This document shows, piece after piece, positions 3,074 through 30,984 of a DNA stretch of 64,000 nucleotides. Every line of letters begins with the position of its first letter. Position 1 is the stretch's first letter. The stretch lies in IMG/VR virus record IMGVR_UViG_3300006854_000019. One strand, 5' to 3'. The stretch is from a virus. A model generated the notes under the pieces. That model had not been told where the DNA came from. It made no database searches and worked only from the letters and a program-made list of their open reading frames with translations. Made by a program: the position numbers and the translations under genes.

Positions 3074-3220
3074 TTAGCGCCCGAGCCGGAGACGCGGCGG
3101 CGAGACCATGGCCCAGAAAAGAAGCCCCGCGAAGCCGGCGAGAAGAAGCCAGGCGGCGATCTTGCCGGAAGGCGCAGCCTCATCACCGAGACCGCTGACG
3201 GCCACGATCGGCCGTTTCAC
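3074..3220 (-). CDS. small tail-anchored membrane protein (48 aa), below the ORF-track size cut-off
   Basis: Hand translation: GTG 3220..3218 overlaps the TGA of gene 3217..4023 (GTGA). MKRPIVAVSGLGDEAAPSGKIAAWLLLAGFAGLLFWAMVSPPRLRLGR, stop TAA 3076..3074. Same helix-plus-basic-stub design and coupling as its neighbours. Confidence 0.45.
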   Translation of the reverse strand: MKRPIVAVSGLGDEAAPSGKIAAWLLLAGFAGLLFWAMVSPPRLRLGR

Positions 3221-4023
3221 CGCCGGCCCTGCCAGTAGCGGTAGCCGAGGTAGGCGGCGCCGGCGAAGAGTGCCGTGCCGACGAGCAGCTTGCCGGTCGA
3301 TGGGGGCGCGGCAACGGGCGGCGCCGGCACGCTGGTCGGCGGCGTAGATGTGGGCGCTGCGTGGATCTGCGCGCCGAGGGCGATGCCAAAGGGGAGATCA
3401 GGATGCTGCCGCTCGCTGCCCGAGCGGGGCACTTGCACCGGGAACACGAGCTGGCCATTCAGGCGCCGGGCCGCGTCGTCCATCGTGCCGCGGCCGCCGT
3501 CGCGATCGTCGGGATCGGTGCGCGCTGTGGCCCAGTACAAAAACTGGATCTGCGGCACGGGCTTCGGATCGTCCTGCCGGTAGACGCCTTCGGCGGCGAA
3601 GAGCTTGTAGGGGCGCCCGGTGAACGCCGTCTCGGCCGCCATGTACTCGACCGGAACGGGCGTAAGTACGCCGACCCAACCGATGTCGTGGCCGAAGGCC
3701 GCCGATGACGCCATCGATAGGATCTGCTGGCTCAGCGGGTAGACGATGATGTTCTGGTCGGGCGTACGGATGTCCTGCCAGTCAATGCTGCCCTCTTGCT
3801 CGCCCCACGCCGTGTACACACCGATGGGTTGCACAGGCGTCGTGGCGCCGGGGAACTGGCCGCGAAGAATGGCCTCGAGTGTCTGTTCGCCGAAGCCCAT
3901 GCCGCTTGGCATTTCGGCGATCGAACCGAGCCCATTGATCGGCTGGTTGTACGCGTTCTTGTAGTAGGCGCCGAGACCGTTGATGGCCTGGTTGTACTGG
4001 TTTTTGTAGTAGGCGCCGAGCAT
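3217..4023 (-). CDS. tail-anchored membrane protein with N-terminal GLGAYYKN-YNQ-INGLG repeats (268 aa)
   Basis: ATG 4023 with GGAG 8 nt upstream; two N-terminal repeats LGAYYKNQYNQAINGLG / AYYKNAYNQPINGLG; Pro/Thr linker; C-terminus GKLLVGTALFAGAAYLGYRYW-QGRR. Confidence 0.8.
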   Translation of the reverse strand: MLGAYYKNQYNQAINGLGAYYKNAYNQPINGLGSIAEMPSGMGFGEQTLEAILRGQFPGATTPVQPIGVYTAWGEQEGSIDWQDIRTPDQNIIVYPLSQQILSMASSAAFGHDIGWVGVLTPVPVEYMAAETAFTGRPYKLFAAEGVYRQDDPKPVPQIQFLYWATARTDPDDRDGGRGTMDDAARRLNGQLVFPVQVPRSGSERQHPDLPFGIALGAQIHAAPTSTPPTSVPAPPVAAPPSTGKLLVGTALFAGAAYLGYRYWQGRR

Positions 4024-5181: not shown

Positions 5182-5457
5182 TTACGCCGTGTACACGGCT
5201 CCATCGATGACGTGCCCGTGCCACTGGCAGCCTGTGGGCAGGAGGATCGACGGGCGCAGGGTCAGGTTTGCGAGGCCGGTTCCGGTCGCATGCCAGCGCC
5301 CGGGCCCTGGCGTCACGCCGGCGGGCACGTTTCGCCCGGCGAACCAGACCAGGAGCGAATGCTGGTCGGTGAAGCGGCACTTCGGGCAGAGGAAAGTAAC
5401 GCCGCCGGCAAGCGAGAGATCGTCCGTGTGGACGAGAAGCTCGCGATCGCCCTCCAT
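5182..5457 (-). CDS. small Cys/His protein, DUF6527-like (91 aa)
   Basis: FLCPKC...W(x)GTGLANLTLRPSILLPTGCQWHGHVIDGAV resembles the CPxC ... PS(I/L) ... C-x-H-G-x-(I/V)-x-x-G pattern of a phage-associated family I recall as DUF6527. Confidence 0.5.
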   Translation of the reverse strand: MEGDRELLVHTDDLSLAGGVTFLCPKCRFTDQHSLLVWFAGRNVPAGVTPGPGRWHATGTGLANLTLRPSILLPTGCQWHGHVIDGAVYTA

Positions 5458-5504: not shown

Positions 5505-6452
5505 TCAGTAAGGACCGTACCCCGCAGGCTGCACGATGCGGTAGCCGTGAAAGCCGATCGTCAGAATGCCGTTCGGCAGCCGCGTGACCGGGTCGGTGTC
5601 GCCCGCGTCCGCGTTGTTCGTGTCGTTGATGCCTTCGACCGCATCCCAGCCCGCGTCGAGGAAGGGGAAGTTCGTGTTCGGGGCACCGAATCCGGAGAGG
5701 TTTCCGTAGGCGGCGTTGTTGGCGTGCAGGGGCAGGATCTTGAAGGTCAGGACCTCGCCCCGCTCGAACACGTCGAGCGCACCCAGGGGGAAGGGATCGT
5801 TGATCTGCTTACACCAGAGCGAGCTCGGCACTTCGAGGTTCGTTCGGGGGAAGCTCGAGCCGGCGTTCTCGAACTTGATCCGGAAGTCGCCTTCCATCGA
5901 GCGCCAGGGCGAGAGCGTCGGCGGACTCGTCACGTGTGGAGCGCCGGTGCCGGGCGAGGCCTGCACCATCGTGACCTCGACGACGGGCTTACTGTCGCCG
6001 ATGTCCCAGACGCTGGCGATGGGGCGGTAGCGGCCGTTGCTCCGGCCGAGAAACGAGGCGCGGTCTCCGGTCACGGGATCGATGAACTGAAATTCGTAGT
6101 CGGACTGGAAGGTCGCGTAGCGGGCCACTGCCACGAACGGGCCTTCTTGCGAGATGGTGATCGAGCCCTGAAGGACACTCGTCACGCTCGCGCCGACGTT
6201 GATGTCGACCAACAGATCGAACGGGATGCGCCGGCCGGGAATGTTCTCCACGTACTGGATCTTGGGATCACCCGTACGCGAGGCCTCGACCTTTTGAATC
6301 GCCTGCGACAATCGGGCGAGCTCGCCGCGGATCGCATTGGCATCTTGGGACTGAAGTCCTGCTTGCTGCGCGAGTTGAAGGGCCTGCCGGGCAGTGCCCG
6401 ACGCGTAGCCCACTTGGTTCACGAGCTGCGCAAACTGCTGATCGGTAATCAT
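5505..6452 (-). CDS. structural protein candidate: N-terminal coiled coil + beta-rich domain (315 aa)
   Basis: ATG 6452 (MITDQQFAQLV) preceded by GGAGG 6 nt upstream. About 60 aa of helical heptad-like sequence, then a beta-rich body ending GILTIGFHGYRIVQPAGYGPY. Confidence 0.7.
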   Translation of the reverse strand: MITDQQFAQLVNQVGYASGTARQALQLAQQAGLQSQDANAIRGELARLSQAIQKVEASRTGDPKIQYVENIPGRRIPFDLLVDINVGASVTSVLQGSITISQEGPFVAVARYATFQSDYEFQFIDPVTGDRASFLGRSNGRYRPIASVWDIGDSKPVVEVTMVQASPGTGAPHVTSPPTLSPWRSMEGDFRIKFENAGSSFPRTNLEVPSSLWCKQINDPFPLGALDVFERGEVLTFKILPLHANNAAYGNLSGFGAPNTNFPFLDAGWDAVEGINDTNNADAGDTDPVTRLPNGILTIGFHGYRIVQPAGYGPY

Positions 6453-6578
6453 CACGTGCCTCCACAATCGAGGGAGTACCGGCGCGCGGGGTGCGCGCGC
6501 CGTGCCGTTAAGTCGAAGGGCCTAAGCGCGCCGCATCGCCCGCGAAGTGGGAAAGGAGGGAGCCTTTTAGAGGAAGCT

Positions 6579-6636: not shown

Positions 6637-7389
6637 TTACTGAACGTCTCGCGAGAACAGACCGTCGAACGTGAAGGTCACGACCTTTTGGATCGCGTCG
6701 ATCGCGTTCAGGTTGTCCCGGAGGCTCAGCATGTCGCGCGACCCTTGGGTCGTGCCGAACAGCTGCGCGTTGCCGTTCGCGCTCATGCCGAAGATCTTTG
6801 CCTGGCAAAGGATGTTCTGGCGGGGCGGGAGCAGGATCGCGCGCGCGAGCCGGAGGATGCCCGAGTGGCCATCGTTGCCGGAGTTCTGCCAGTGGATGAG
6901 GTCGGTCGTGCCGCCCATGTCACCGGAGATTCCGCCGCCGGCCGGGAAGTACCAGGTCGGCATGTTGTCGATGGAGTTCTTGAGGCCGGTGCCGAAGCTC
7001 CAGTGCAGCTGCTCTGCCGTCTGCCAAATCAGACGGTAGTAGTCCTGCACGGTGCCCGGGGCCTGACCCTCGGCGATACCGCCAGTGAGCCACGCCTCGA
7101 GAGAGCCGTAGTCACCGTTCTGCGCCACTTCACCGTCGGCGCCGCCGTCGATCCGCAGGATCGGATTGCGGTACCAGGCGAAGACGCGCAACGCGAGAAC
7201 GACGTGGCTCTGATCGGACGGCAGAGTCGAGCCGTTGATCAGGTTGGTCGTCGACTCGTTGCGTTGCCCGTTCGAGGTGAACAGGCTCGTCGTGTCGGTG
7301 AGGGAACCGGCGCTGAGGCCGGCTGTGCGAACGAGCGTATCCCAAAATGGCTGATGAACGCGCTCGCGAATCGAAACTACCTTTGCCAT
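6637..7389 (-). CDS. major structural protein candidate (250 aa; possible single jelly-roll capsid protein)
   Basis: ATG 7389 (MAKVVSIRERVHQPFWDT). N/G/T/S-rich all-beta-looking sequence ending KVVTFTFDGLFSRDVQ. Preceded by a 276-nt structured leader and followed by clustered hairpins, as expected for a highly expressed capsid gene. Fold assignment is inference only. Confidence 0.6.
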   Translation of the reverse strand: MAKVVSIRERVHQPFWDTLVRTAGLSAGSLTDTTSLFTSNGQRNESTTNLINGSTLPSDQSHVVLALRVFAWYRNPILRIDGGADGEVAQNGDYGSLEAWLTGGIAEGQAPGTVQDYYRLIWQTAEQLHWSFGTGLKNSIDNMPTWYFPAGGGISGDMGGTTDLIHWQNSGNDGHSGILRLARAILLPPRQNILCQAKIFGMSANGNAQLFGTTQGSRDMLSLRDNLNAIDAIQKVVTFTFDGLFSRDVQ

Positions 7390-7614
7390 TGTGTCTTTTG
7401 TCCTTACAGGGCTTCCATTTTTAGAGTGGCTGGTTCCACTTCGTGGATCCCTTTCGGAAGAGCCACAATTCGACCCTGTTGTCGGATGTTCGGGCTGGCA
7501 CTACACGGCACAACCATTGTTCCGTGTGAGCGCCTTCAACGCCCCAAGGCCCGAGCTCCTGGTTTTCCAGGAGACATCGAGCCCGGGAGCGCGGCTGGAT
7601 TCCCTTCTCAGGGA

Positions 7615-7640
7615 CTCACGGTCACCCGCATGACCGTGAG
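7615..7640 (-). terminator. perfect 10-bp stem-loop 26 nt downstream of the polybasic-protein gene
   Basis: CTCACGGTCA-cccgca-TGACCGTGAG; no U-tract follows, so termination is only a possibility. Confidence 0.3.
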
Positions 7641-7665: not shown

Positions 7666-9735
7666 TCAACCGAAGACGCCCTGGCCTCCGTCGGTCTGGA
7701 GAATCCCAGCCGGGGTGAGAGCGCTCGCGCTTTGCGGCGAGCTCACCGGCCGGACGCCTGCCCACAGCTGTGGGTCACTCGTCCCGGGGATCCACGTGTC
7801 CGCAGAGGGCACGCGGCTGATAGCGCCGAGACCATTCATGCTCTCGGCGAAGTACTCGCCAACGCCTGCACTGGCCTCGTACGGTTGAACACGACCCATG
7901 CCCGCCGCCGCCTCGTAAGGCGGAAGCTGGCCGACGCCTGCCGCCGCTTCGGCGATCGTGAGCTCGCGCTCGAGATCGCTTGCCGGGTCGATGTGATTGG
8001 TGTTGGTGTTCGGCATCGCGCCGATGCCCGCTGCCGCTTGGTAGAAGTCGGGATTCGGTCCGTAATTGCCGAGACCATTCATGCTCTCGGCGAAGTACTC
8101 GCCCATCCCGCTCATCGGCTCGTTGAAGTACTCGCCCACGCCGCGCCCACCGCTGATCGCGGCGTAGTGCGGCATGATGCTCGCGCCCGCGCCGAGGCCG
8201 TACATGGCGGACAGGCGTGCAGCCGTTCCGTCATCGTACCCAGCGAGGTAGCCCGAGGCCTGCGGAGCAACCTTGTCGAACACGGTAACGAGCACCGTGT
8301 GCAGGAAGGCTGCGGCGAGACCGCCGGTGAGCAAGTACTGCGTCTTGACGTCCTTCACCACCGCGGTCGTGAGCGCGATGCCAGCGATGGCGCCGACAGC
8401 GCCGCCGATGAGTGCCTTGTAAGGCTGAAGGGCTTCGAGACCGCTCGTGGCCGGAGGGGTCGCCGGCGCTGCGGGGGTAGCCGCTTTGCCGAGCACCTTG
8501 TCGAGGACGAGATCGCCCAGGACTTTGGTGATGACCTTCTGACCAGCGAAACCGAGCGCGATGAAGGCGCCTGCTTTGAAGGCGGCTTCGAGATTGCCGA
8601 GAGCGCTGTTCTTACGGAACACGCTCTTCGACCGACGGCTCTTGCGCGCCCGGCGACGGCCGTGATGCCGGCTCCGGTTCGGAGTGTGCCGGCGATTCTT
8701 GCGGTGCGTGCGGCGCTTCGCGTGCGACCGGCGACGGGCATGCACCCGGCGGCGATTGCGACGATGCGTACGGCGCTTGGCCGCGTGGCGGCGGTTCTTG
8801 CGATGCGTGCGGCGCTTTGCAGCACGGCGGCGCGGCGAACGACGCTTGGCCGAAGCCTTGCGGCGCTTCCTACGGCGCGGTGCGGCCACCTTCACAGCAC
8901 GGCGGCGGCGCTTGGCCGACGCTTTCCGCTTCTTCCGGCGGCGCTTCCGCGGGTTTGCCACGTAATCGCTCTCGCTCGAGCGCATGGCGCGGCGGCGCGC
9001 GCGGCGCTGGGCCGAAGCGTACGACGCCCGACGCCGACGACGCCGGCTACGGCGCTTCTTCGGCGTGGCTGCCCGCTTGGCAGCGGCGCGGCGGCGCTTT
9101 CGGGGCGCGCTCTTACGCTTGCCTGCGCTTCGGCGCCTTTTCTTGTGGGTACGCTTGGCTGCATGAGTGCGGCGGTTCGCGGCGAGCCGCGAGCGCCGAC
9201 GACGACGTCGCTTCATGGTGCTTTTCCTTCCTGCGTGCTTCCGAATGCGCTTTCGCGTACTCGAAGTTTTTCGGGTTCGTTTTGCCGAAACCTTGCGCTT
9301 GCGCGACTTTTTGGCGACCTTGCGGCGGTGCCGCGCGGGACGCGCAGCCGCGACGGTCGGCGTGTGCCGGCGGAACTTGCGGCGGCGGGGCGAGCCGAAC
9401 CGCGATCCGCTATGCGTGAGCGGGTGGGCGCGGACCGTGCGACGTTTCGCGTTCTTCCGGTGCGACGCGCTGTGCACCCGCTTGGCAAACGCGGACCGTT
9501 CGGACGCCGTCAGCTTTCTGGCACGTGCGAGGCGCGCATTCGGGGAGAGCCCCGTCATCGCCCGGCGGGCGGAGGTCGGCCGGCGGCGGAATCGCCTACG
9601 GTAGGCGCCCCGGCCGTTCACCGCGGCAATCGCGGTGACCCCTGGATTTGCCCGCATCCCGGGCCGCGCGTAGCCGTAGCTCTTCGCCGCCCTCTTCGGG
9701 ATCGGGAATGCGCGTCCTACTGCTCGTCGCTTCAT
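7666..9735 (-). CDS. polybasic (protamine-like) N-terminus + hydrophobic core + GxGEYF-repeat C-terminus protein (689 aa)
   Basis: ATG 9735. First ~380 aa are dominated by R/K/H with tandem AAKRRTHRKNRRH-type repeats. Middle has hydrophobic helices (GGAVGAIAGIALTTAVV, LLTGGLAAAFLHTVLVTVF). C-terminus carries GVGEYFNEPMSGMGEYFAESMNGLG and a second GVGEYFAESMNGLG. Confidence 0.8.
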   Translation of the reverse strand: MKRRAVGRAFPIPKRAAKSYGYARPGMRANPGVTAIAAVNGRGAYRRRFRRRPTSARRAMTGLSPNARLARARKLTASERSAFAKRVHSASHRKNAKRRTVRAHPLTHSGSRFGSPRRRKFRRHTPTVAAARPARHRRKVAKKSRKRKVSAKRTRKTSSTRKRIRKHAGRKSTMKRRRRRRSRLAANRRTHAAKRTHKKRRRSAGKRKSAPRKRRRAAAKRAATPKKRRSRRRRRRASYASAQRRARRRAMRSSESDYVANPRKRRRKKRKASAKRRRRAVKVAAPRRRKRRKASAKRRSPRRRAAKRRTHRKNRRHAAKRRTHRRNRRRVHARRRSHAKRRTHRKNRRHTPNRSRHHGRRRARKSRRSKSVFRKNSALGNLEAAFKAGAFIALGFAGQKVITKVLGDLVLDKVLGKAATPAAPATPPATSGLEALQPYKALIGGAVGAIAGIALTTAVVKDVKTQYLLTGGLAAAFLHTVLVTVFDKVAPQASGYLAGYDDGTAARLSAMYGLGAGASIMPHYAAISGGRGVGEYFNEPMSGMGEYFAESMNGLGNYGPNPDFYQAAAGIGAMPNTNTNHIDPASDLERELTIAEAAAGVGQLPPYEAAAGMGRVQPYEASAGVGEYFAESMNGLGAISRVPSADTWIPGTSDPQLWAGVRPVSSPQSASALTPAGILQTDGGQGVFG

Positions 9736-9827
9736 CGGTGACTACCTCGTCAGGCAGATCCCTGCGTTGCTCGCAGGGACAGCCGGTCAGTCCGATGAAG
9801 GAGATCCGGTGTTTCGCGGTAAAACCC

Positions 9828-9863
9828 ACGCTACTGGGCGTGCCGGATTAGGTCAAGAAATCG
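9828..9863 (-). promoter_or_regulatory. promoter-like motif CGATTTCTTGACC-N17-TAGCGT upstream of the polybasic-protein gene
   Basis: Minus strand: -35 TTGACC = 9856..9851, -10 TAGCGT = 9833..9828. The 13-mer CGATTTCTTGACC is identical to the one at 53128. Confidence 0.5.
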
Positions 9864-9870
9864 AGCGAAA

Positions 9871-10044
9871 CTATTTCTTGCGCGCCAGCCAAAGAATGCC
9901 GGCAGCAGCAAGAAGGCCGATTCCGATGATCCCGCGAGTGGTCAGGAGCTTCGTTTGCGGGTGCGATTCGTTGTAGGACGGGGCGTTCGTAAGGACCGGC
10001 GGCGGGTGGAGGTCATCACCTACGGGGAAGTTTGCGTACGACAT
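9871..10044 (-). CDS. tail-anchored membrane protein (57 aa)
   Basis: ATG 10044 (MSYANFPVGDD) overlaps TGA of upstream gene by 1 nt; C-terminus RGIIGIGLLAAAGILWL-ARKK. Confidence 0.6.
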   Translation of the reverse strand: MSYANFPVGDDLHPPPVLTNAPSYNESHPQTKLLTTRGIIGIGLLAAAGILWLARKK

Positions 10045-10916
10045 CAGCGGGTCCTCCAAAGCACGAGTCCGAGGGCAGCGGCGCCGGCGACGAGAAGTGC
10101 CGTGTTGCGGATCGTCTCCGATTGTTTCTGTGCGTGGCCAACGAGATGCTCATGCTCGCGCACGACGGCAGTGTAACGGAGTAGCACGCGCGGGGTCGCG
10201 CCGAGGAGCGCGTTCGTGGCATCGGCCAAACGCTGCACAGACACCGCCGGCGGGAAGCTGCAGACGTTGTAGGGCACCGTGTTTGGTGGGAGAGACGAGG
10301 GGGATCCGTTCCAGCCTGGTGGCGGGAACAGATCCATTGCACCAGCGGCCACGAGCTCAGCCCACGAATTGATCGGTGTGAGCGCGCCCTTGTACATGGC
10401 AGTCGGCGGCTTCACTTCCGGATGGGCGCGGCGCGCATCATCGACCGCCTTGATCGAAGCATTCTGCTGGCGCAAGTACTGCTCGTGCAGCGGCGCACAC
10501 GCGCGGAGCTCGGCTGCGGCGCGCATGCGTTCGCCAGCGTGGTCCAGGTAGTCCTGGCAGGCTGGCGTGTTGTGGAACGTCGCGCCGCCCGCGCGCATCT
10601 GTTCGCAGAAGTTACACGGATCGAAACTGTGCACGGTGTTGCAGTCGATCGGGTGACTCACGCCGAAGATGTCATCGAGGACATCGGCCACGGCGCCCAC
10701 GATGGCGCCGGCGACTGCGCCGCAGGGCCCTGGCGGAATGCCGTAGGCCGCGCAGTACGCGTTCGCGGCGCAGCTTGCGCCGTTTTTCGCGGCGTTTTTT
10801 CGCCCGTCGCCCGTCGATAGATCACCGTGGGCAGCGAGTTTCGCGCAATTGCCCATCTTGACGTCGATGTCTTTGCCTTTGTCGTCGCCGAGACCGCGGA
10901 AGAATTGGTAGCTCAT
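10044..10916 (-). CDS. Cys-rich tail-anchored membrane protein (290 aa)
   Basis: ATG-AGC-TAC start (MSYQFFRGLGDD), ATGA overlap at 10913..10916; many Cys in the ectodomain; C-terminus NTALLVAGAAALGLVLW-RTR. Confidence 0.75.
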   Translation of the reverse strand: MSYQFFRGLGDDKGKDIDVKMGNCAKLAAHGDLSTGDGRKNAAKNGASCAANAYCAAYGIPPGPCGAVAGAIVGAVADVLDDIFGVSHPIDCNTVHSFDPCNFCEQMRAGGATFHNTPACQDYLDHAGERMRAAAELRACAPLHEQYLRQQNASIKAVDDARRAHPEVKPPTAMYKGALTPINSWAELVAAGAMDLFPPPGWNGSPSSLPPNTVPYNVCSFPPAVSVQRLADATNALLGATPRVLLRYTAVVREHEHLVGHAQKQSETIRNTALLVAGAAALGLVLWRTR

Positions 10917-11470
10917 CCGGTGATCCCGTCCTTTTCCACGTCGAGTACTTCGCCGGTCACGAGCGCATGCACGCCGGCTTGCGTGTACACGATGAGCATC
11001 ATCTGCCCTGTCTCGGGATGCTTCGTAGCACCGAGCCAGCCGGCAAGATTGATCTGGTAGTAGCCGCCGCGATCGGGAATGCCGTAGTCATCGGGCGTGC
11101 CTTCGTGCAGGCGGGCCTGGATGCCAAGGATCTTGGCGAGCACGGCAAAGCCTTCAGGCATGGGCCGCGGGAGTTCGAGCATCGGGCCCACAAAGTCGTC
11201 GTCATCTTCGGCGAAGATCACAGAACCCGGGGTGAGAAGGAGATTCTGGTTACCTTCGGCGATGTGCTTGTAGTCGACCGGCACTTTCTCGCGCCACTTG
11301 TCGGAGCTGTACATCACCGCCTCGCACGTGCCCACGTGCTGCATCCGCCGCGGCCAGGTCCAGGAGACCGGCGTGATCTTGTTCGCGGGTTCGTCATAGA
11401 ACGTCTCGCGGATCTTTTTGGCCCGCTCGATGTCGCTTTTTCGGTTCGGCGTGTAGATGCGGCGGATCAT
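10913..11470 (-). CDS. hypothetical soluble protein (185 aa)
   Basis: Internal ATG 11470 (MIRRIYTPNRK) forms an ATGA overlap with the stop of 11467..11793; no TM helix; no motif recognised. Confidence 0.7.
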   Translation of the reverse strand: MIRRIYTPNRKSDIERAKKIRETFYDEPANKITPVSWTWPRRMQHVGTCEAVMYSSDKWREKVPVDYKHIAEGNQNLLLTPGSVIFAEDDDDFVGPMLELPRPMPEGFAVLAKILGIQARLHEGTPDDYGIPDRGGYYQINLAGWLGATKHPETGQMMLIVYTQAGVHALVTGEVLDVEKDGITG

Positions 11471-11793
11471 CGGTTTCGCTTCCAGATCCACCAGCCGATG
11501 CCGATGCCGAGGGCGAGCATGCCGATGTTGCCGATGCCGATGCTCATGCTGGCGCCGAGTACGCCCGAGCGGGACATGGGCGCAACGAGCCCGCGCGCTA
11601 CGGGTCCGGAACCGACACGGGTCGAACCCGAGGGGATGGAACGGCCCGCTTCGTTACTCGGGATCCCGATGTCGGTACCGCCTGACAGGCGTGGCACGGG
11701 CAGATCATCGCCGATGCCGACCGATTGACCGGGCGCATCGTAGTAGTCGTACCCGCCGATGTCCGGGCGCCATTGAGAGTAGATCACGCCCAA
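11467..11793 (-). CDS. tail-anchored membrane protein (about 106-108 aa)
   Basis: TTG 11793 or GTG 11787 start; high third-position G+C in this frame across 11705..11793; C-terminus MSIGIGNIGMLALGIGIGWWIW-KRNR. Confidence 0.6.
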   Translation of the reverse strand: MGVIYSQWRPDIGGYDYYDAPGQSVGIGDDLPVPRLSGGTDIGIPSNEAGRSIPSGSTRVGSGPVARGLVAPMSRSGVLGASMSIGIGNIGMLALGIGIGWWIWKRNR

Positions 11794-12145: not shown

Positions 12146-13209
12146 GGCAGATCGGCTAGCTCGGCCCAGCGGGTTTGTTCCCGGGCGTCTTCGACCGCGC
12201 GCATCCCGCCCTGGTTTGCACGAAAAAGCCTGCCTTGGCGGTTTTCGGTGCCGGGATCGAGGTTCGCTTCCCAGCGGTAGCGCATGTCATCCACGTCGTT
12301 TTCGCTGAGGCCCGAAGCGATGTACGCGAGGCTCAAGAAGTTCACGGCGTCCGGATCAAGCCCGCGGACGTCGAGCGCAAGAAGCGTTGTCGATTCGGCA
12401 GCGTAGATCGTGCCCGGTGTTTTCAAGATTTCCTTCCAAAGCCAAAGGATCGCGCTTTCGTCGGGCACGCTTTCCGGGATCGCCACGCCGAGCTCGACCG
12501 CTACCAGGTTGTGTTTCTCCGCACTTTCGTACTCGTAAATGTCGTACGAGACTTCCTTCTCGCGCTCGATGTCCACGTTCAGCGTGTTGACGTATCGGAC
12601 TTTGGCGTCCTCGTAGTCGAGCGTGACGCAGCCTTCAATTTCGTCGGCGGTGATGTTGAGGTCCACGCCCTCTTCGACTTCTTCTTCGGTCTCGGTGTGC
12701 TCTTCGGTAAGGCCCTTGCTTGCGGCTGCCGACCACCAGCGCGATGCGGCGTGCGAGCGGGAGCTCGAGGCCGAGGAGATGCCATCCTTCGACTGGTTCT
12801 TCGGCCACATGTCGATCGCGACATCCGGCAGGTTGTAGTTCGCGTACGCACCAAGACTCAAGGCGGTATAGAGCGAGGTGCCGTAGCCGCCGCCCTTGAT
12901 CGCGACGCCATCGGGCGTGTGCGCGCGTGGGTAGCCCGTGATGCGCGCCGGCTCGGCGTAGTCCGAATGGCGATCGCTTTCGTAGTAGCCGACGCCGAGA
13001 CGGGCGAGAAAGTTATTGGCGCGGAGGCTTCGGATGCCCACGTAGTCCCCATCGGTGATGGTGATGAGCGGCTCCTGGAGTTTCGGGTTCACCACGATGC
13101 CAAGAAGCATGCGGCCGCTGAGCTCGATCTTTGGGCGGCCGGCGCCGGGCGTCGGCGCGCTGAGCTCAAGTCCGGTGTTTCTGCGGTAGCGCGGCATGCC
13201 CCGCCTCAC
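12142..13209 (-). CDS. hypothetical protein with central acidic stretch (355 aa)
   Basis: GTG 13209 in GTGA overlap with the stop of 13206..13487 (alternative ATG 13197); acidic EEHTETEEEVEEGVD segment; no motif recognised. Confidence 0.75.
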   Translation of the reverse strand: MRRGMPRYRRNTGLELSAPTPGAGRPKIELSGRMLLGIVVNPKLQEPLITITDGDYVGIRSLRANNFLARLGVGYYESDRHSDYAEPARITGYPRAHTPDGVAIKGGGYGTSLYTALSLGAYANYNLPDVAIDMWPKNQSKDGISSASSSRSHAASRWWSAAASKGLTEEHTETEEEVEEGVDLNITADEIEGCVTLDYEDAKVRYVNTLNVDIEREKEVSYDIYEYESAEKHNLVAVELGVAIPESVPDESAILWLWKEILKTPGTIYAAESTTLLALDVRGLDPDAVNFLSLAYIASGLSENDVDDMRYRWEANLDPGTENRQGRLFRANQGGMRAVEDAREQTRWAELADLP

Positions 13210-13487
13210 TTCGGGCGGCGCATTACGACGAGGCCGATGGCCAGGACGCCGAGTCCGAGCGCCCAGAGCATCGTCTTGTCACTCGAGCGCTCGCAGGTGC
13301 CGGCGCAGTAGTCGAGGCTCAGGAGGTGCGCGATCTGTTCGGGGGTGCAGAGACCGCCTTGGTTCGTTTGGCAATCTTCGACGATCTTCTGGTTCAGCTC
13401 GTCGCTGTAGCAGGTGTACGACTGATCGGCGGGCTTTGCCGTCGGTGTCGAGTCGAAGGGCCAGACGCCCATCGCCTGATAGCTCAT
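13206..13487 (-). CDS. Cys-containing tail-anchored membrane protein (93 aa)
   Basis: Internal ATG 13487 (MSYQAMGVWPF), ATGA overlap with upstream stop; C-terminus TMLWALGLGVLAIGLVVM-RRPK. Confidence 0.65.
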   Translation of the reverse strand: MSYQAMGVWPFDSTPTAKPADQSYTCYSDELNQKIVEDCQTNQGGLCTPEQIAHLLSLDYCAGTCERSSDKTMLWALGLGVLAIGLVVMRRPK

Positions 13488-14380
13488 GCTGTAGCCGCCG
13501 TTTTCTTCGCGCTCATGAAGCGCTCGGTCACCTGGGGCAAGAATTCGATGAGCAGAAAGACGCCGACACCGATGCCGCCGATGTACATCGCGGTCTTGTA
13601 CCAATCGACGTTCGCGCCTTCGGCGAGCTTGTTGCAGAGATCTTTTTGATCCTGGGTCGGGTTCGGCATCTGCTGGCAGAGCCGGATGTCTTCGTGCAGG
13701 CGCCGGTTATTCGTTGCTGCGTACTCGTAGAGCGCAACGATCGTGGCCAGGCCCAGGATCAACGCCACGGCGGCAACCAGAATGCCGACCGGGATCACGG
13801 GCACTTCGCCGAGCCCGGACGCGCCGCCTTGCGACTTCATGAGCGCGATCGAATGCGCGACCGCTGCGTCCACCTGGTGCACGGTGCCCGATTGGAGCTC
13901 GGGGCTCGTGATGATGTACTTCTGAAGAATGCCGCTTTCGCCGATCTTTGCGACGGCCTGGAAAAGCGTGAGCCGGGCCTGGTAGTCCAGGCCGAATTGT
14001 TCGGGGCCGAGTTTCGCCTGGGCGGCGACCACGTTCGCGTGGCCCCAGTGCGCCGGCGCGCCGTCCGCTGCCGCGATGAAGGCTGCAACCAGGATGTCCC
14101 GGAGCACATCGAACGATGTCTGCACCGCGAGCGAGACGGGAACCGAGGCGTAACCAAGAAATCCGAGCACGCCGTCGGCGCGCTTCGTGAGATCTTTTCG
14201 CATCGCCGCCATTTCGGCGAACGCATTCCGGGGCGCGATCGCGTCGATGCCGGGCAGCATGTTGATCTGCACGAGCGCGCGCGTGTACCACTGGTCGAGC
14301 CAGAGGGCGCGGGTGACTTCATCGTTCGAGGGGGACGACTCGACCGTGAAGCGGACTGCAAGATCCTTGTAATCGGCCAT
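13484..14380 (-). CDS. membrane protein, two helices in the C-terminal third (298 aa)
   Basis: ATG 14380 (MADYKDLAV); helices VPVIPVGILVAAVALILGLATIVALY and AMYIGGIGVGVFLLIEFL. Confidence 0.75.
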   Translation of the reverse strand: MADYKDLAVRFTVESSPSNDEVTRALWLDQWYTRALVQINMLPGIDAIAPRNAFAEMAAMRKDLTKRADGVLGFLGYASVPVSLAVQTSFDVLRDILVAAFIAAADGAPAHWGHANVVAAQAKLGPEQFGLDYQARLTLFQAVAKIGESGILQKYIITSPELQSGTVHQVDAAVAHSIALMKSQGGASGLGEVPVIPVGILVAAVALILGLATIVALYEYAATNNRRLHEDIRLCQQMPNPTQDQKDLCNKLAEGANVDWYKTAMYIGGIGVGVFLLIEFLPQVTERFMSAKKTAATA

Positions 14381-14386
14381 CGTGGT

Positions 14387-14776
14387 TCAGGCGTGCTTCG
14401 GCTTCTTCTTGTGCTTCTCCCACTCCTTGTAGCCGTAGTACGCGCTACCGAGGGAAGCGACGGCGATGAGGCCGTAGGCCCAGAAGGGAACCTGGTTCAA
14501 GGCAGAAGCAATGTCGCGCTTCCACGCCGGCATCTCCGCGCCCGTTTCCACGAAGCGGCGGAACGCCTCGGGCAGGATGCTCGAATCGGTCGGTACATCG
14601 CCGAGGCCGTCGGGCGTCCGGCCCATGTCCGTGTAGTACCCATCGTCATACGGAGCGCGGAAGTTCGACACGTCACCGTACATGCGTCCCGGCGGCCAGG
14701 CGGCGCCGAGGCCCTGAAACGGTACGCCGATGAACGGCGACCGAAAGGACTGCATGCCGATGTACTTCCGACTCAT
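14387..14776 (-). CDS. tail-anchored membrane protein (129 aa)
   Basis: Internal ATG 14776 (MSRKYIGMQSF) in ATGA overlap with upstream stop; C-terminus VPFWAYGLIAVASLGSAYYGY-KEWEKHKKKPKHA. Confidence 0.65.
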   Translation of the reverse strand: MSRKYIGMQSFRSPFIGVPFQGLGAAWPPGRMYGDVSNFRAPYDDGYYTDMGRTPDGLGDVPTDSSILPEAFRRFVETGAEMPAWKRDIASALNQVPFWAYGLIAVASLGSAYYGYKEWEKHKKKPKHA

Positions 14777-15384
14777 GCGTGTATCCAACCCTTCTTTTTG
14801 GCGATCGCGTAGCCGATGACGCCGACGGCCGCGATGCCGCCACCGACCATCAGCATGCTGGCCGTGGTCATCTTCGGCTTGGTCGGCGCAAGCACGGGAT
14901 TGGTCACCGGCGTCGGGGTCGGCGCGGGCGGCGGCGGGGGTGGTGGTGGCGGGGCCAGGTGCGGATCGTAGGAGAACGACTTGCACGTGCCGGGCACGGA
15001 GAAGCCCGAGCCGCCATTGTCGAGCGCCCACTTGAGCGCGCCGCAGGTGCCGGGGCCGAGCTTTCCGTCAGCGCCGACCGTGGCCGCGCCCTTCGAGGCG
15101 AGGAAATTATTCAGGGTGCGCTGCATGAGCGCGGTGTTCGAGCTGTACGTACCCCAGGGGTATGAGCTTGCCGGTCCGCCGCCGCCGGCATTGATCCCGT
15201 GCTGCAGGCCGCCCGTTGCGCAGTTCGCCTGGCAGATGGTGCGATTTCGCGTATCGTCCTCGTCGAAGGACGGGTACTGCGCGCCGCACTTGTCCAGGCA
15301 CTGGTTGAAGCTGAAATCGTCGAGGCCGGAGTCGTCAGCGCCGACGCCGCGATTTTTCGTCTTGAAAATACCCATCCCTTGCAT
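14773..15384 (-). CDS. tail-anchored protein with peptidoglycan-binding-like domain and poly-Pro linker (203 aa)
   Basis: LMQRTLNNFLASKGAATVGADGKLGPGTCGALKWAL fits the PG_binding_1 pattern (LQ..LN..G....vDG.fGp.T). Then PPPPPPPPPAPTPTP and the helix MLMVGGGIAAVGVIGYAIA-KKKGWIHA. Confidence 0.7.
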   Translation of the reverse strand: MQGMGIFKTKNRGVGADDSGLDDFSFNQCLDKCGAQYPSFDEDDTRNRTICQANCATGGLQHGINAGGGGPASSYPWGTYSSNTALMQRTLNNFLASKGAATVGADGKLGPGTCGALKWALDNGGSGFSVPGTCKSFSYDPHLAPPPPPPPPPAPTPTPVTNPVLAPTKPKMTTASMLMVGGGIAAVGVIGYAIAKKKGWIHA

Positions 15385-16116: not shown

Positions 16117-16533
16117 TTACCGATGGTGAAGCGCGACTGCCGCCTCGATACCGAGACCGAGCGGTCCGAGAAAGAGTCCCGCCGCAACGCCCCAGAGGGC
16201 GTACTTCATTTGCTTATCGCGCGAGGGAGCGACCGCCTTGCCCACGAAGTAGCCGGCACCGGCGCTGATGGCGGCGCCGAGCAGCGCCATGCCGAGACCG
16301 ACGGGATAGTTATGACCCGTGGCCGGGACGTTCGTGGTTGGCGGCGTTGCGTCTGCCGAGAGCGCGCCGAGCGCACTGAGCGCGGGAGAATACTTGCCGA
16401 GCGAGGAGAGCACGCCGGGGCGACGCTGGGGCGTGCGCGCGATCGCGCCGAGCCCTGACATGGGCTCGTTGAAATACTCGCCCATGCCGCTCATCGGTTC
16501 GTCGAAGTATTCGCCCAGTCCAAGTTGGTTCAT
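16117..16533 (-). CDS. membrane protein with N-terminal GLGEYF-EPMSG-G repeats (138 aa)
   Basis: MNQLGLGEYFDEPMSGMGEYFNEPMSGLG, then two C-terminal helices (VGLGMALLGAAISAGAGYFVG, YALWGVAAGLFLGPLGLGIEAAVAL); ATGA overlap at 16530..16533. Confidence 0.75.
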   Translation of the reverse strand: MNQLGLGEYFDEPMSGMGEYFNEPMSGLGAIARTPQRRPGVLSSLGKYSPALSALGALSADATPPTTNVPATGHNYPVGLGMALLGAAISAGAGYFVGKAVAPSRDKQMKYALWGVAAGLFLGPLGLGIEAAVALHHR

Positions 16534-17219
16534 TTGCCTTTCCTTCGTTTCGAGCTCCGGAGCGATGCGTACGCGGCGCCGGCAGCAAGACCGGCAAGGC
16601 CGATGAGGCCGATGACTTTCCAGTTCGAGGAGAGACCCGGCGCAGGCGCGTCGTCGGCGCCGATCGCTTGCGGGTTCTGCCGCACGTTGACGATCGATTG
16701 CATCGCCATGGGCGAGCCCTGGCCCGCGCGCATCACGGGACGCGGGGGCGCGTAGACGCCGCCTTCGAGGTAGGCGATCTGCGCGGCGCTATCCATGCTC
16801 ACCGCACCGCTCGGCACGTACACGACGGGGCGGCCCGTCGTCACATCGACCACTTCACTCGGCTCCCACATCCGCTCGCGCGCGAGGTAGCCGGGGAGAT
16901 CGAAGCGCGCGGCAAGAATGCCGGCGTCCGCGTTGATGTTCGGGCGCGTACCGGGCGGATCGAAGACCCCGTTGCCTTGGATGTCGTCGGCTTCGGCGTA
17001 GACCGCGAGCTCGTTCGCGGCGTAGGCCTGATCGGCCGCTTCGTCCTGCACATCGACATCGGAACCGGCGAGATGGCGGCCGTGCGCACGATCGATCGCG
17101 GTCTGGTAAAATGGAGCCGTGCCTGAGGAGTAGCGAAGATCGCTCGGGCCCACCTGGGTCATCCGGGGGAGCTCCCCGCTCCAGGGCTGGTTGTCGTAGT
17201 CGGGATAAATCGGGCTCAT
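16530..17219 (-). CDS. tail-anchored membrane protein (229 aa)
   Basis: ATG 17219 (MSPIYPDYDN); C-terminus WKVIGLIGLAGLAAGAAYASL-RSSKRRKGK. Confidence 0.75.
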   Translation of the reverse strand: MSPIYPDYDNQPWSGELPRMTQVGPSDLRYSSGTAPFYQTAIDRAHGRHLAGSDVDVQDEAADQAYAANELAVYAEADDIQGNGVFDPPGTRPNINADAGILAARFDLPGYLARERMWEPSEVVDVTTGRPVVYVPSGAVSMDSAAQIAYLEGGVYAPPRPVMRAGQGSPMAMQSIVNVRQNPQAIGADDAPAPGLSSNWKVIGLIGLAGLAAGAAYASLRSSKRRKGK

Positions 17220-17223
17220 CGGT

Positions 17224-17562
17224 TCACCGTTTCTTCTTCATCGATCGGTAGGCGATGATGCCACCACCGACGACGAGGGCGGCGACGAGGCCGCCGATGA
17301 CGAGCTTCTTTTTCTGATCGTCTTCACCCGATCCGGCTCCGGCTCCGCTGTCGGTCGGCGTGCCGCGGTCGGTGTGCGTCGGCACCGACGTCATGGACAC
17401 GCACGGGCGAAGCGTCTGCACCCAGCACGGATCGGCGCCTGCGAAGCGGCCGCTGAGCGCGCCGAGACCCGCGATCACGGGGTGGCAGTTCGCGCGCGCT
17501 TCGATGAGCTCGGCCTGCGTTGCGCAGGTGGGGTATCCACCGTTTCCGAGTCCGCTGTACAT
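17224..17562 (-). CDS. tail-anchored protein with YPTCATQA...ADPCWVQTL domain (112 aa)
   Basis: Internal ATG 17562 (MYSGLGNGGYPTCATQAELIEARANC...GADPCWVQTLRPC) overlapping the upstream stop by 1 nt; C-terminus KKLVIGGLVAALVVGGGIIAY-RSMKKKR; paralogue of 17936..18604. Confidence 0.65.
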   Translation of the reverse strand: MYSGLGNGGYPTCATQAELIEARANCHPVIAGLGALSGRFAGADPCWVQTLRPCVSMTSVPTHTDRGTPTDSGAGAGSGEDDQKKKLVIGGLVAALVVGGGIIAYRSMKKKR

Positions 17563-17921
17563 CACGCTGCCTTTCGATGGCGGTAGTAAAGAAATCCGGC
17601 GATGGCGACCGCCGCTGCGATGCCGCCATAGAGCGCATAGTTCGGTTTGCTCGAGGCCGGAGGGACATCGCTCCGCGGCGGAACGAGACTGCCGCCGTTC
17701 GGCGGCGTGTTCGTGTTCGGCGGGGGCTGCGTTCCGCCACCACCACCGCCGCCGCCACCGGTCCACCACGAGTCGTGCGTGGTCGGCGGGACGTTGGTCA
17801 TTTTCGGCGCCACGTGGCTGTCGGTCGGCACACTCGAAAGGCGCGGGGCGATGTGCTCGTCACCGGGCGGCGTGTAGTCCGATTGGACCTTGATATTGAT
17901 GTCTCCGATGGCGGCGTACAT
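17562..17921 (-). CDS. tail-anchored membrane protein, Gly/Pro-rich (119 aa)
   Basis: ATG 17921 (MYAAIGDINIKVQ); GGGGGGGGG / PPPNTNTPP stretch; C-terminus YALYGGIAAAVAIAGFLYY-RHRKAA. Confidence 0.65.
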   Translation of the reverse strand: MYAAIGDINIKVQSDYTPPGDEHIAPRLSSVPTDSHVAPKMTNVPPTTHDSWWTGGGGGGGGGTQPPPNTNTPPNGGSLVPPRSDVPPASSKPNYALYGGIAAAVAIAGFLYYRHRKAA

Positions 17922-19177: not shown

Positions 19178-19214
19178 ACTCTACGGGCGTGGGCTTAAAG
19201 TTGGCAAGAAAGCG
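19178..19214 (-). promoter_or_regulatory. promoter-like motif GCTTTCTTGCCA-N18-TAGAGT upstream of the peptidase/membrane-protein block
   Basis: Minus strand: -35 TTGCCA = 19207..19202, -10 TAGAGT = 19183..19178; about 45 nt upstream of ATG 19132. Confidence 0.4.
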
Positions 19215-30074: not shown

Positions 30075-30984
30075 TGATGTCTCCTGCCCCCGCAGTGGAT
30101 ACCCCATCGAACCTTACGGATACCCCATCCCCGGTGCCCCCTGGGGCAAGAATGGGATATCCACCACCCGGGGTCGAGCGCCCACGTGAACAAGAGTTTA
30201 CGCTAATGGCTTGGTAGGGTGGGAAAGTCTTGGGATCTTCAGAACATGAGCTACTAAGAATGTGTGTGTGTGCTTCAGGTTCGGATGGGGTATCGGATGG
30301 GGTATCGAAGGGGTACAAAGAAGAAGAAGAAGAGAAAGACAAAGATACACACACAGGAAATGAATCTTTTTCTTCTCCGGAGGCGGATGGGGTATCGGAT
30401 GGGGTATCGACCTCGGATGGGGTATCCTGGAACCGAAATTCCAAGCCGATCATCGAATCCGCATTAGAGGCACCAGGATCGTCTTTCCCGCTGGCGATGA
30501 CGTGTTGGGTCGTCGAGACGAGCGCGGGGACCGTATAGCCCGCCCTAAGCCCGGCAATCACTATTCCGAAGGAACTGTTCCAACACCGTACGAGCCCAGG
30601 GTTCTCCGGATTGATGGAACTCGTGAGATTTTTGACATGTGAGAACTTTAGTCCACACACGGGCAGCTTCTTCCAGGTGTTCCACCAGGAGATCAGGGTC
30701 TTCCAGGAGTAACAAAGGTCATAACGCGCTGCGCGAGGAATCGAGATGAGCCGCGTGCCACGGTCGACTTGGATGATCCCCCGCCGCTCGAGGACAGCGA
30801 GCCCCTCCTCGACGTACTCTTCTGGCCGCACGATCTCGTCGCCGATGACCCTGGGGCTCGCCACCACGATGCCGGGAACTTTGATAATCAGGGTCCCATC
30901 GAGAAAAAATTTCAGCACCTGTCGCGCTGGATCCGGCAACGCCTTGAAAAACTGTTCTTGCCAGATGGGATGTGTTAGGCCCAT
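29854..30984 (-). CDS. putative replication initiator (wHTH-like N-terminal domain); ORF reads through the iteron origin, 3' boundary uncertain
   Basis: ATG 30984. N-terminal ~185 aa look coding (EEGLAVLERRGIIQVDRGTRLISIP). From ~30430 the frame translates the iterons (DTPSDTPS). From 30074 it has low third-position G+C while the overlapping loader frame is high. Confidence 0.5.
   Translation of the reverse strand: MGLTHPIWQEQFFKALPDPARQVLKFFLDGTLIIKVPGIVVASPRVIGDEIVRPEEYVEEGLAVLERRGIIQVDRGTRLISIPRAARYDLCYSWKTLISWWNTWKKLPVCGLKFSHVKNLTSSINPENPGLVRCWNSSFGIVIAGLRAGYTVPALVSTTQHVIASGKDDPGASNADSMIGLEFRFQDTPSEVDTPSDTPSASGEEKDSFPVCVSLSFSSSSSLYPFDTPSDTPSEPEAHTHILSSSCSEDPKTFPPYQAISVNSCSRGRSTPGGGYPILAPGGTGDGVSVRFDGVSTAGAGDINGRGQREQAGSVESGRIPVDTRPIVDAARDRTGRDASGNGASGGPPGVPSEAPSGVSKSPPLWLQKLKQRGLA
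30097..30426. other. putative origin of replication: 12-bp iterons GGATGGGGTATC + purine/AT-rich spacer
   Basis: Exact direct copies at 30283-30294, 30295-30306, 30385-30396, 30397-30408, 30415-30426. Exact inverted copies (GGATACCCCATC) at 30097-30108 and 30118-30129. Degenerate copies at ~30152-30162 and 30307-30316. (TG)6 at 30261-30272. Low-GC (GAA)n tract at 30317-30384. Confidence 0.7.

Follow-up and report, generated by a model that had tools for sequence, protein, structure and literature searches.

A long polybasic protein with predicted membrane helices in large soil bacterial viruses and its possible role in linking genome, membrane, and shell

The 64,000-nt stretch of virus record IMGVR_UViG_3300006854_000019 from IMG/VR (the window; 64% G+C, with all positions numbered on it) contains a reading frame on the minus strand (−) whose first half is crowded with arginine and lysine and whose second half carries hydrophobic helices and GxGEYF motifs. 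This raises the question of whether such a frame is a gene at all and, if it is, what a bacterial virus would do with the product. The comparisons below indicate that the frame is genuine, and there is about an even chance that the product is a virion protein that links genome, viral membrane, and shell and neutralizes the DNA, with DNA binding, virion location, membrane, and docking partner all putative.

The complete coding sequence (7666..9735, −) begins with ATG, has GAGG 9 nt upstream, and encodes 689 amino acids (aa). Because Arg-rich shadow open reading frames (ORFs) are abundant in this window and the public gene call on the identical sequence (P0001) covers only 318 aa from an internal GTG, the long frame needed testing. 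Truncated calls of ~290–350 aa stand in public annotation for the window gene and for loci L001, L003, L011-L014, and L016, and in eight orthologous contigs the gene finders report a product of ~300 aa and leave 1.1–1.4 kb upstream uncalled. The same frame is open back to an ATG in all of these loci (8/8), giving proteins of 625–753 aa; together with the window, these two NCBI metagenome-assembled contigs and six IMG/VR contigs form the set of nine orthologous proteins used here. The G+C content of third codon positions is 0.77–0.79 in the N-terminal and C-terminal halves alike. Substitutions were compared between L003 and L007, the contigs of closer relatives ending inside the gene; the basic region of this pair differs at 32, 28, and 105 sites of codon positions 1, 2, and 3, respectively, with 79 synonymous vs. 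35 non-synonymous codon changes, and the N-terminal head and the C-terminal domain show the same third-position-dominated pattern. An exhaustive HMMER search with a profile of the C-terminal domain returned 300 representatives of 50% identity clusters, 104 of them at E ≤ 1e-30, and more than half of the best 150 of these 300 are called at 550–1098 aa with the matched domain at the C-terminus; distant family members retain the head motif and a Lys/Arg-rich middle. The initial annotation had defended the frame by its third-position G+C and its motif-rich C-terminus, and conservation across nine genomes and the codon-position substitutions now indicate that it is a genuine gene, shown by these alignments to be under purifying selection. 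The family has been systematically mis-annotated, its members being cut to ~300 aa beside a seemingly empty 1.1–1.4 kb. In addition, the metagenome contigs of P0003 and P0004 end within the basic repeat region, where assemblies tend to break.

A calculation of charge and composition, which had been proposed as a check, gives 166 Lys and Arg (45%), 18 His, and only 3 Asp and Glu in residues 1–372; Arg accounts for 31% and Lys for 12% of residues 1–395, and the C-terminal 311 aa hold 15 Lys and Arg vs. 25 Asp and Glu. The earlier description of a ~380-aa protamine-like N-terminus holds for this basic composition but not for the first ~90 aa, which form a conserved, non-repetitive head (aa 1–95; 9451..9735, −; net +26). 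Aligned across nine genomes, the head is 46–54% identical with 18 invariant columns, a conservation equal to that of the C-terminal domain, and its consensus reads GRAFxI..K.YGY..P..N.GVT.IAAvNGRGAY..SAR..M.GLS..R.ARAR. The head is followed by a polybasic low-complexity arm (aa 96–372; 8620..9450, −; net +137), and head and arm together carry ~+163. Among the nine orthologues, the net charge of the part before the helices stays within +113 to +171 while Arg:Lys ranges from 128:4 to 75:97, the arm varies in length between lineages, and its repeats are lineage-specific, with HRRNFSAKQRAAALRNLRKARAA units in L005/L010 and RRRRTRRAASPV units in L008. Since charge is conserved while Arg:Lys and the repeats drift, selection keeps the charge and not the sequence, a pattern expected of a nucleic-acid-binding polyelectrolyte. 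In the window protein, the arm contains the repeat AAKRRTHRKNRRH / AAKRRTHRRNRRR / HAKRRTHRKNRRH, each unit of which has at least 7 of 13 residues as Lys or Arg and is thus over half basic, as first reported. The degenerate ~40-bp DNA repeat described with it corresponds to a 39-bp degenerate tandem repeat encoding AAKRRTHRKNRRH units at 8747..8832 (−) (Tandem Repeats Finder: 2.2 copies, 76% matches) and a third, displaced copy downstream in the gene at ~8686-8724. Distant members of the family (P0273, P0288, P0289, P0302, P0319, P0332, P0338, P0352, P0354, P0361, P0369, and P0377) carry an additional conserved block midway along the arm, VAYGPYRRA.L.NP.TGR.EYSY.Y.TK.G..RRIP.WA..G ... FTPN, which gave no Pfam match and is absent or vestigial in the clade of the window.

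A conserved F/Y-R/K-R/K-N junction leads from the arm into a hydrophobic core (aa 373–497), for which an AlphaFold2 model, built on a 109-sequence alignment, predicts a three-helix unit with a predicted local distance difference test score (pLDDT) of ~88–97. Helix 1 (aa 377–415; 8491..8607, −; pLDDT 88–96) is long and moderately hydrophobic, with a mean hydropathy of 0.94; a Pro/Ala/Thr linker, whose length varies, connects it to helix 2. Helix 2 (aa 433–459, LIGGAVGAIAGIALTTAVV; 8359..8439, −; pLDDT ~89–97) and helix 3 (aa 463–497, LLTGGLAAAFLHTVLVTVF; 8245..8349, −; pLDDT ~94–97) are transmembrane-like, nearly charge-free, and linked by the tight turn VKDVKT, and the 19-residue Kyte-Doolittle peaks reach 2.09 (~aa 442–460) and 1.92 (~aa 468–486) in them, respectively. 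Where two or three hydrophobic helices had been suggested, the structure model thus has three, two of which are transmembrane-like by hydropathy. The charge layout of the whole protein is +163 before the helices, ~0 to +1 in the loops, and −13 after them.

The C-terminal tail (aa 498–689; 7669..8244, −) is Gly/Ala/Pro-rich, has a net charge of −13, and is predicted to be disordered and mostly coil (AlphaFold2 pLDDT ~38–55). Most invariant columns of the family nevertheless fall within the tail (23 over 109 sequences in the alignment of the C-terminal domain), and its conserved motifs are AARLSAMYG, the GxGEYF repeats, NPDxYQAAAGxG, NHIDPxSDLxRELTIAEAAAGVG, TWIPG..LWAG, and a C-terminal GGxG(V/I)FG, which is GGQGVFG in the window protein. 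The GxGEYF motifs first seen in this region are three in number: GVGEYF at aa 532–537 (8125..8142, −), GMGEYF at aa 543–548 (8092..8109, −), and GVGEYF at aa 624–629 (7849..7866, −). The full set of family features, comprising head, basic arm, F/Y-R/K-R/K-N junction, three helices, and tail motifs, is present in the window protein and in the eight orthologues. Such a combination of predicted disorder and many invariant columns is typical of a segment that becomes ordered only when bound to a partner.

Other proteins share this short peptide. In a six-frame translation of the 64 kb, GxG[EA]Y[FYI] occurs only in the polybasic protein (three times), in p138 (twice), and in p268. The small membrane protein p138 (16117..16533, −) ends in hydrophobic helices, and its N-terminus, GLGEYFDEPMSGMGEYFNEPMSGLGAIARTP, copies the motif block of the polybasic protein, being a near-copy of GVGEYFNEPMSGMGEYF...GVGEYFAESMNGLGAISRVP there; in the p138 family (40 hits), GxG(E/A)Y(F/S) and QANAGYG-type motifs lie in a variable N-terminal tail, which is followed by a conserved membrane part with C-terminal hydrophobic helices. 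Similarly, the tail-anchored protein p268 (3217..4023, −) starts with MLGAYYKN..NGLGAYYKN..NGLG, a variant of the GxGEYF motif, and both p268 and its L003 counterpart combine NGLGAYY / NGLGAYF repeats with a C-terminal anchor, the L003 region having GIGAYFKPEYEKPINGLGAYF. Because it is predicted disordered and has GxGEYF in common with other membrane proteins, the tail of the polybasic protein looks like a docking tail, and the display of one short peptide by several membrane proteins of the module argues for its binding a common, repeated partner. GxGEYF is a candidate capsid-docking peptide.

The likeliest such partner is a capsid lattice of the neighboring p250/p320 proteins. In every locus compared, p250 and p320 come next after the polybasic gene; the exception in layout is L016, in which an HNH endonuclease gene (1072-1920, weak Pfam hits), probably a mobile homing element, is inserted between the polybasic gene and p250. 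The immediately downstream p250 (6637..7389, −) is a candidate major capsid protein and the most conserved nearby gene, with 68–88% identity across its family of 687 hits and at least 70% identity over the best 120 of these 687, and no annotation of this family was found anywhere. The second conserved syntenic gene, p320 (5505..6467, −), is a candidate structural protein with 52–64% identity in seven loci and no family or PDB match; an hhalign comparison of p320 with p250, as a test for paralogous capsid proteins, found no relationship. The octamer CTCTAAAA occurs in the window solely upstream of p250 and p320 (6565-6572 and 7419-7426).

Membrane proteins are frequent in the same part of the window, where 12 of the 32 genes at 0.8–24.4 kb have a transmembrane-type segment vs. 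6 of 39 elsewhere, mostly as C-terminal anchors with basic residues after them. About a dozen small proteins at 0.8–18 kb have a single terminal hydrophobic helix followed by 2–4 basic residues, with tips such as ..QKKR, ..RKKKP, ..ARKK, ..WRTR, ..KRNR, and ..QGRR; examples are encoded at 799-1155, 1152-1436, 2319-2792, 3217-4023, 9871-10059, and 10044-10916, and further ones at 11467-11793, 13206-13604, 14773-15384, 16530-17219, and 17224-17769. This uniform tail-anchor design would put every basic tip on the same side of a membrane. Phages that contain a membrane have many small membrane-protein genes beside their structural genes, and the many such genes in this module let us infer a viral membrane here as well. 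Membrane-containing phages as a group are covered elsewhere (PMC6356626).

The proposed role follows from a protein of four parts, namely a ~90-aa head, a ~280-aa disordered polycationic arm, a three-helix membrane core, and a ~190-aa acidic disordered tail. The arm would bind the viral double-stranded DNA (dsDNA) electrostatically, neutralize part of its charge, and aid its compaction, and the helices would anchor the resulting nucleoprotein to the viral membrane. The tail motifs, several per chain, would dock on a repeated partner, most likely the p250/p320 capsid lattice, and p138, p268, and other small membrane proteins would use the same docking motif. One copy offsets ~163 of the ~276,000 phosphates of a 138-kb genome and ~850 copies neutralize half of them, so that a few hundred copies would offset a sizeable share. 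A wider reading, which is tentative and rather doubtful, is that the virus belongs to a new lineage of bacterial viruses, large, without tails, and with an internal membrane, to which this protein would attach a chromatin-like core of ~110–180 kb of protein-neutralized dsDNA. Textbook packaging of phage DNA relies on a motor and small cations, with only a minor part ascribed to basic proteins (PMC3281028). If this wider reading is true, protamine-style packaging of a genome would be seen for the first time among bacterial viruses, and a widespread lineage of large soil viruses would show that they, too, condense their genomes by protein, as adenoviruses, baculoviruses, and giant viruses do; GxGEYF would be a common peptide "zip code" by which membrane proteins are directed to the capsid lattice, and there would be a handle on how membrane, genome, and shell are brought into mutual register.

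Several observations weigh against this proposal, and the main difficulty for a protein linking genome, membrane, and shell is its topology. By the positive-inside rule, basic segments stay on the cytoplasmic face of a membrane, and in PRD1-type assembly the cytoplasmic face of the host-derived membrane points to the capsid and not to the DNA. The +163 arm should therefore remain cytoplasmic and, in a PRD1-like assembly, face the capsid instead of the DNA-filled lumen. If the chain passes the membrane three times, the short basic loop would be cytoplasmic as well and arm and tail would lie on opposite sides; with helices 2 and 3 as a two-helix hairpin, they would lie on the same side. Possible ways out are such a hairpin, with arm and tail on one side, another mode of membrane acquisition, or an arm that does not meet packaged DNA. 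The first description of a genome-condensing protein tethered to a membrane has thus stood in part: the gene is real, its charge is conserved and joined to membrane-type helices, and its neighbors are the most conserved genes, which probably encode the capsid, but the positive-inside rule would turn the arm toward the capsid in a PRD1-type assembly. The identity of the presumed shell is a further weak point, as the AlphaFold2 model of p250 is beta-rich at a low-confidence pLDDT of 52 and its Foldseek search gave no significant match (all E ≥ 0.09); the named matches are mostly jelly-roll capsids, a resemblance counted as a hint only. No terminase, portal, HK97 capsid, or packaging ATPase was recognized in the 64 kb examined of ~138 kb, and the 10 kb beyond each window edge held no hallmark structural gene and instead a TnpB-like gene, glycosyltransferases, and two-component genes. 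A short isoform could be made from the internal GTG in addition to the full-length protein. Finally, the prevailing view is that densely packed phage DNA offers basic proteins little space (PMC3281028).

The difficulty of topology gives rise to three rival explanations, taken here in order of decreasing probability. The first, which is unlikely, is an assembly linker between capsid and membrane without contact to the genome, in which the arm on the cytoplasmic, capsid-facing side would bind acidic lipid head groups or an acidic inner surface of the capsid and act as glue, scaffold, or tape measure, while the tail motifs bind capsomers. The positive-inside rule together with the charge layout (+163, ~0 to +1, −13) points in this direction, as do the docking motif common to other membrane proteins and the extended, motif-rich tail, which resembles minor capsid "tape" or "anchor" proteins of membrane-containing viruses (PMC10090177). 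However, ~370 residues and a charge of +163 far exceed the needs of contact with lipid or capsid, and an arm whose length and repeats vary freely fits a bulk polyelectrolyte better than a defined interface or a ruler. To our knowledge, no anchor or tape protein has such a polybasic arm.

The second rival, which is improbable, is a non-virion, membrane-anchored DNA organizer of the infected cell that, much like phi29 p16.7, would hold replicating viral DNA at the cell membrane or collapse the host nucleoid there. Topology is easily satisfied here, with the arm in the cytoplasm beside the DNA and the helices in the host membrane. The gene, however, lies outside the replication block (27–36 kb), between small membrane-protein genes and p250/p320; the long conserved acidic tail and the sharing of its motif with p138 and p268 are left unexplained, and p16.7 itself has ~130 aa and is not polybasic. 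Bacterial viruses nonetheless offer a precedent in p16.7, which is integral to the membrane and binds viral DNA (PMC4974454).

The third rival, to which little probability is given, is an ejected pilot or escort protein that would be packaged with the genome, form or join a conduit with its helices, and shield the entering DNA from nucleases with its arm. Hydrophobic helices are indeed combined with an arm of the nucleic-acid-binding type, and adenovirus protein VII stays on incoming genomes, but the motif tail points to a lattice partner and not to a channel. Membrane-containing phages remodel their membrane for DNA delivery (PMC6356626), and the escort explanation is compatible with a packaging role, its emphasis being on entry. 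Last, an annotation artefact, in which translation would yield nothing but the 318-aa C-terminal product and the Arg-rich frame upstream would be one of the chance open frames of G+C-rich DNA, has on its side the Prodigal-type calls of ~290–340 aa that dominate one database (including that on the identical sequence) and the many Arg-rich shadow ORFs, but is now very unlikely, being contradicted by a frame open and co-linear in nine genomes, the 18 invariant columns of the head, the third-position substitutions of the basic region (79 synonymous vs. 35 non-synonymous), a Lys (AAG) content of 12% in the N-terminal half, an otherwise empty gap of 1.1–1.4 kb, and the GAGG ribosome-binding site and promoter-like motif upstream of the far ATG. 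A holin or lysis protein was rejected for wrong size and place, the peptidoglycan-binding gene lying at 56 kb, as was a strict tape measure, since motif number and arm length differ between lineages.

For the preferred virion protein joining genome, membrane, and shell, likenesses are found in several known systems. Adenovirus VII and mu, baculovirus P6.9, and the basic proteins of asfarviruses are Arg/Lys-rich polycations thought to neutralize and condense packaged dsDNA (PMC3281028). The polybasic protein resembles these protamine-like core proteins in its very high Arg/Lys content with almost no acidic residues (166 vs. 3) and in its repetitive, fast-evolving sequence, but they are small, soluble proteins of eukaryotic viruses without membrane helices or docking tail, whereas it has 689 aa, helices, and a conserved head. 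No sequence homology to the protamine-like core families was found in Pfam, PHROGs, NCBIfam, or PDB with the window protein and eight distant relatives. In Microviridae J, the C-terminal domain of the hepatitis B core, circoviruses, and many RNA-virus coats, a basic arm tethers the genome to its container. The likeness to these, a basic arm covalently joined to a holding part, is one of design logic only, as their arms have 20–100 aa, bind single-stranded DNA (ssDNA) or RNA, and, in capsids without a membrane, are fixed to the capsid protein or its inner cleft, whereas the present arm has ~370 aa, a dsDNA genome of ~138 kb, and a membrane-helix anchor. A J-type tether would be a basic N-terminus of ~20–40 aa with a hydrophobic C-terminus bound to the inside of the capsid in an ssDNA virus; what was found is a 689-aa protein of a dsDNA virus of ~138 kb without a Pfam match.

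Among membrane-containing viruses, P16 and P30 of PRD1 are membrane anchor or minor capsid proteins that contact capsomers. Similarly, VP88 of the iridovirus SGIV has a transmembrane segment in the internal membrane and an extended part that contacts capsomers from below (PMC10090177). The polybasic protein would be like these if its predicted membrane segments (two strongly hydrophobic helices in a confident three-helix unit) lie in a viral membrane and its disordered, motif-rich tail contacts the capsid, but they lack a polybasic arm, and no sequence or fold match was found (Foldseek against BFVD, E 0.24; PDB profile search empty). The nearest whole-virion analogue of the proposal is Sulfolobus polyhedral virus 1 of the archaeal Portogloboviridae, which has a membrane and a nucleoprotein core. 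The core protein of Portogloboviridae is separate, small, and not membrane-anchored, and their genome has ~20 kb, whereas the present protein is predicted to be membrane-anchored and belongs to a bacterial virus of ~138 kb, with no homology between them. A concept of membrane plus nucleoprotein core would thus be new for bacterial viruses only, the archaeal Portogloboviridae preceding it.

Two further comparisons concern DNA-binding proteins outside virions. The phi29 protein p16.7 is early and non-structural and has an N-terminal membrane helix, after it a folded DNA-binding domain, and no motif tail. Like p16.7, the polybasic protein would be a membrane protein of a bacterial virus with a putative DNA-binding part (PMC4974454), but it is encoded at 7.7–9.7 kb, away from the replication genes, has the reverse domain order, and has a low-complexity arm. 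Some orthologues, for example L009, are Lys/Ala-rich in the style of bacterial histone-H1-like proteins. Chlamydia Hc1 and Hc2, Pseudomonas AlgP, and the tail of mycobacterial HupB have Lys/Arg/Ala/Pro-rich, repetitive, DNA-compacting tails and are cellular and soluble, whereas the present protein is viral and has membrane helices, and no homology to them was detected. Judged by its size, its architecture, and the lack of any sequence or fold relation, it is a member of none of the compared families and represents a new protein family and architecture, in which a known principle would be found in a new setting, the bacterial viruses.

A search for homologues, also suggested at the outset, retrieved only the family's own ~300 clusters. 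Searches of the protein and its neighbors against Pfam, PHROGs, and NCBIfam gave nothing useful, nor did those of eight distant relatives; PDB-sequence profile searches with the C-terminal domain, the head, p250, and p320 returned only noise, and a Foldseek search of the model of the polybasic protein against BFVD gave no meaningful match (best E = 0.24). The literature searched contained no description of the lineage or of a polybasic membrane protein in phages, and a 2019 review of membrane-containing phages uses no term for condensing, DNA-binding, histone, or nucleoprotein. The initial view that bacterial viruses have no described equivalent therefore agrees with the phage, Pfam, PHROGs, NCBIfam, and PDB resources and the literature searched.

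The virus itself is best described, from its gene content and relatives, as part of an undescribed lineage of large (~110–180 kb) soil bacterial viruses. The gene content of the window looks viral: its products include DnaB, a sliding clamp, a helicase-loader-like protein, glycosyltransferases, an N6/N4 methylase, and a peptidoglycan-binding protein, and most of its genes are orphans; the replication genes (DnaB, loader, and clamp) lie at 27–36 kb. Related IMG/VR contigs of 110–179 kb, which form a ~110–180 kb group, come from soil, this very virus is found again on contigs of up to 138 kb in a number of soil or rhizosphere-type assemblies of JGI and ENA (samples with the virus include JGI 3300006903, 3300007076, and 3300006914 and ENA ERZ27257952), and one related contig was binned as Gemmatimonadales. 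Neither blastn nor tblastn found a match among 50,697 phage records. Two scans of 185,579 species-representative bacterial and archaeal genomes (GTDB) found no relative, so that the polybasic gene is not a common prophage or cellular gene. It is a possible signature gene for a group of viruses without recognizable capsid, portal, or terminase genes.

The sequences flanking the gene carry possible regulatory signals. It had been credited with its own copy of a conserved promoter motif, and such a copy is present in the form of the promoter-like TTCTTGACC-N17-TAGCGT (9828..9859, −), ~95 nt upstream of the ATG, but just one further copy lies in the window (19178-19210, −), the two matches to TTCTTG-N20/21-TAGNGT comparing with 0.04 expected. 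The orthologues have TTGAC...TAGGCT at the same distance upstream. A stem-loop in the 5′ leader, CCCTGCG-AGCAA-CGCAGGG (9760..9778, −), lies just upstream of the ribosome-binding site, and hairpins with differing stems (CCCTGCG/CGCAGGG, GCGCTC/GAGCGC, and CCGCG/CGCGG) occur at the same place in the orthologues (L001-L010). RNAalifold on the leader showed some pairs changed on both sides, in a poor alignment, and the stem-loop may be a conserved structure for mRNA stability or translational control. A second stem-loop of 11 bp, ~25 nt past the stop codon (7616..7640, −; local fold −36.1 kcal/mol, z = −3.3), has no U tract and appears terminator- or stabilizer-like.

Other features of the module and of the remaining window may be mentioned. 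A J-domain (DnaJ) protein (1687-2313, −), conserved in the module and encoded a few genes after p320, may recruit host Hsp70 for assembly, and a 91-aa Cys-rich protein encoded after p320 (5182-5457, −) gave a weak BubE (PF20137) hit. Directly after the membrane-protein module, the left window edge (1-798, −; L017 10402-12342) cuts a 646-aa gene with a weak Cas12f1-like TNB (TnpB-type) domain. On the same contig, ~7–9 kb past the right edge (L019 18275-20495), lie two response-regulator genes and a histidine-kinase gene, and the window has a dual-specificity phosphatase-like gene as well as the peptidoglycan-binding protein (56101-56913); this content of two-component and phosphatase signaling is unusual for a virus. 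Finally, the stretch of lowest G+C in the window (30281-30430; 0.58) contains five copies of a TCGGATGGGGTATCG-type 12-15-mer, beside the helicase-loader and DnaB genes and where gene orientation and GC skew switch, and resembles an iteron array that may be an origin of replication.

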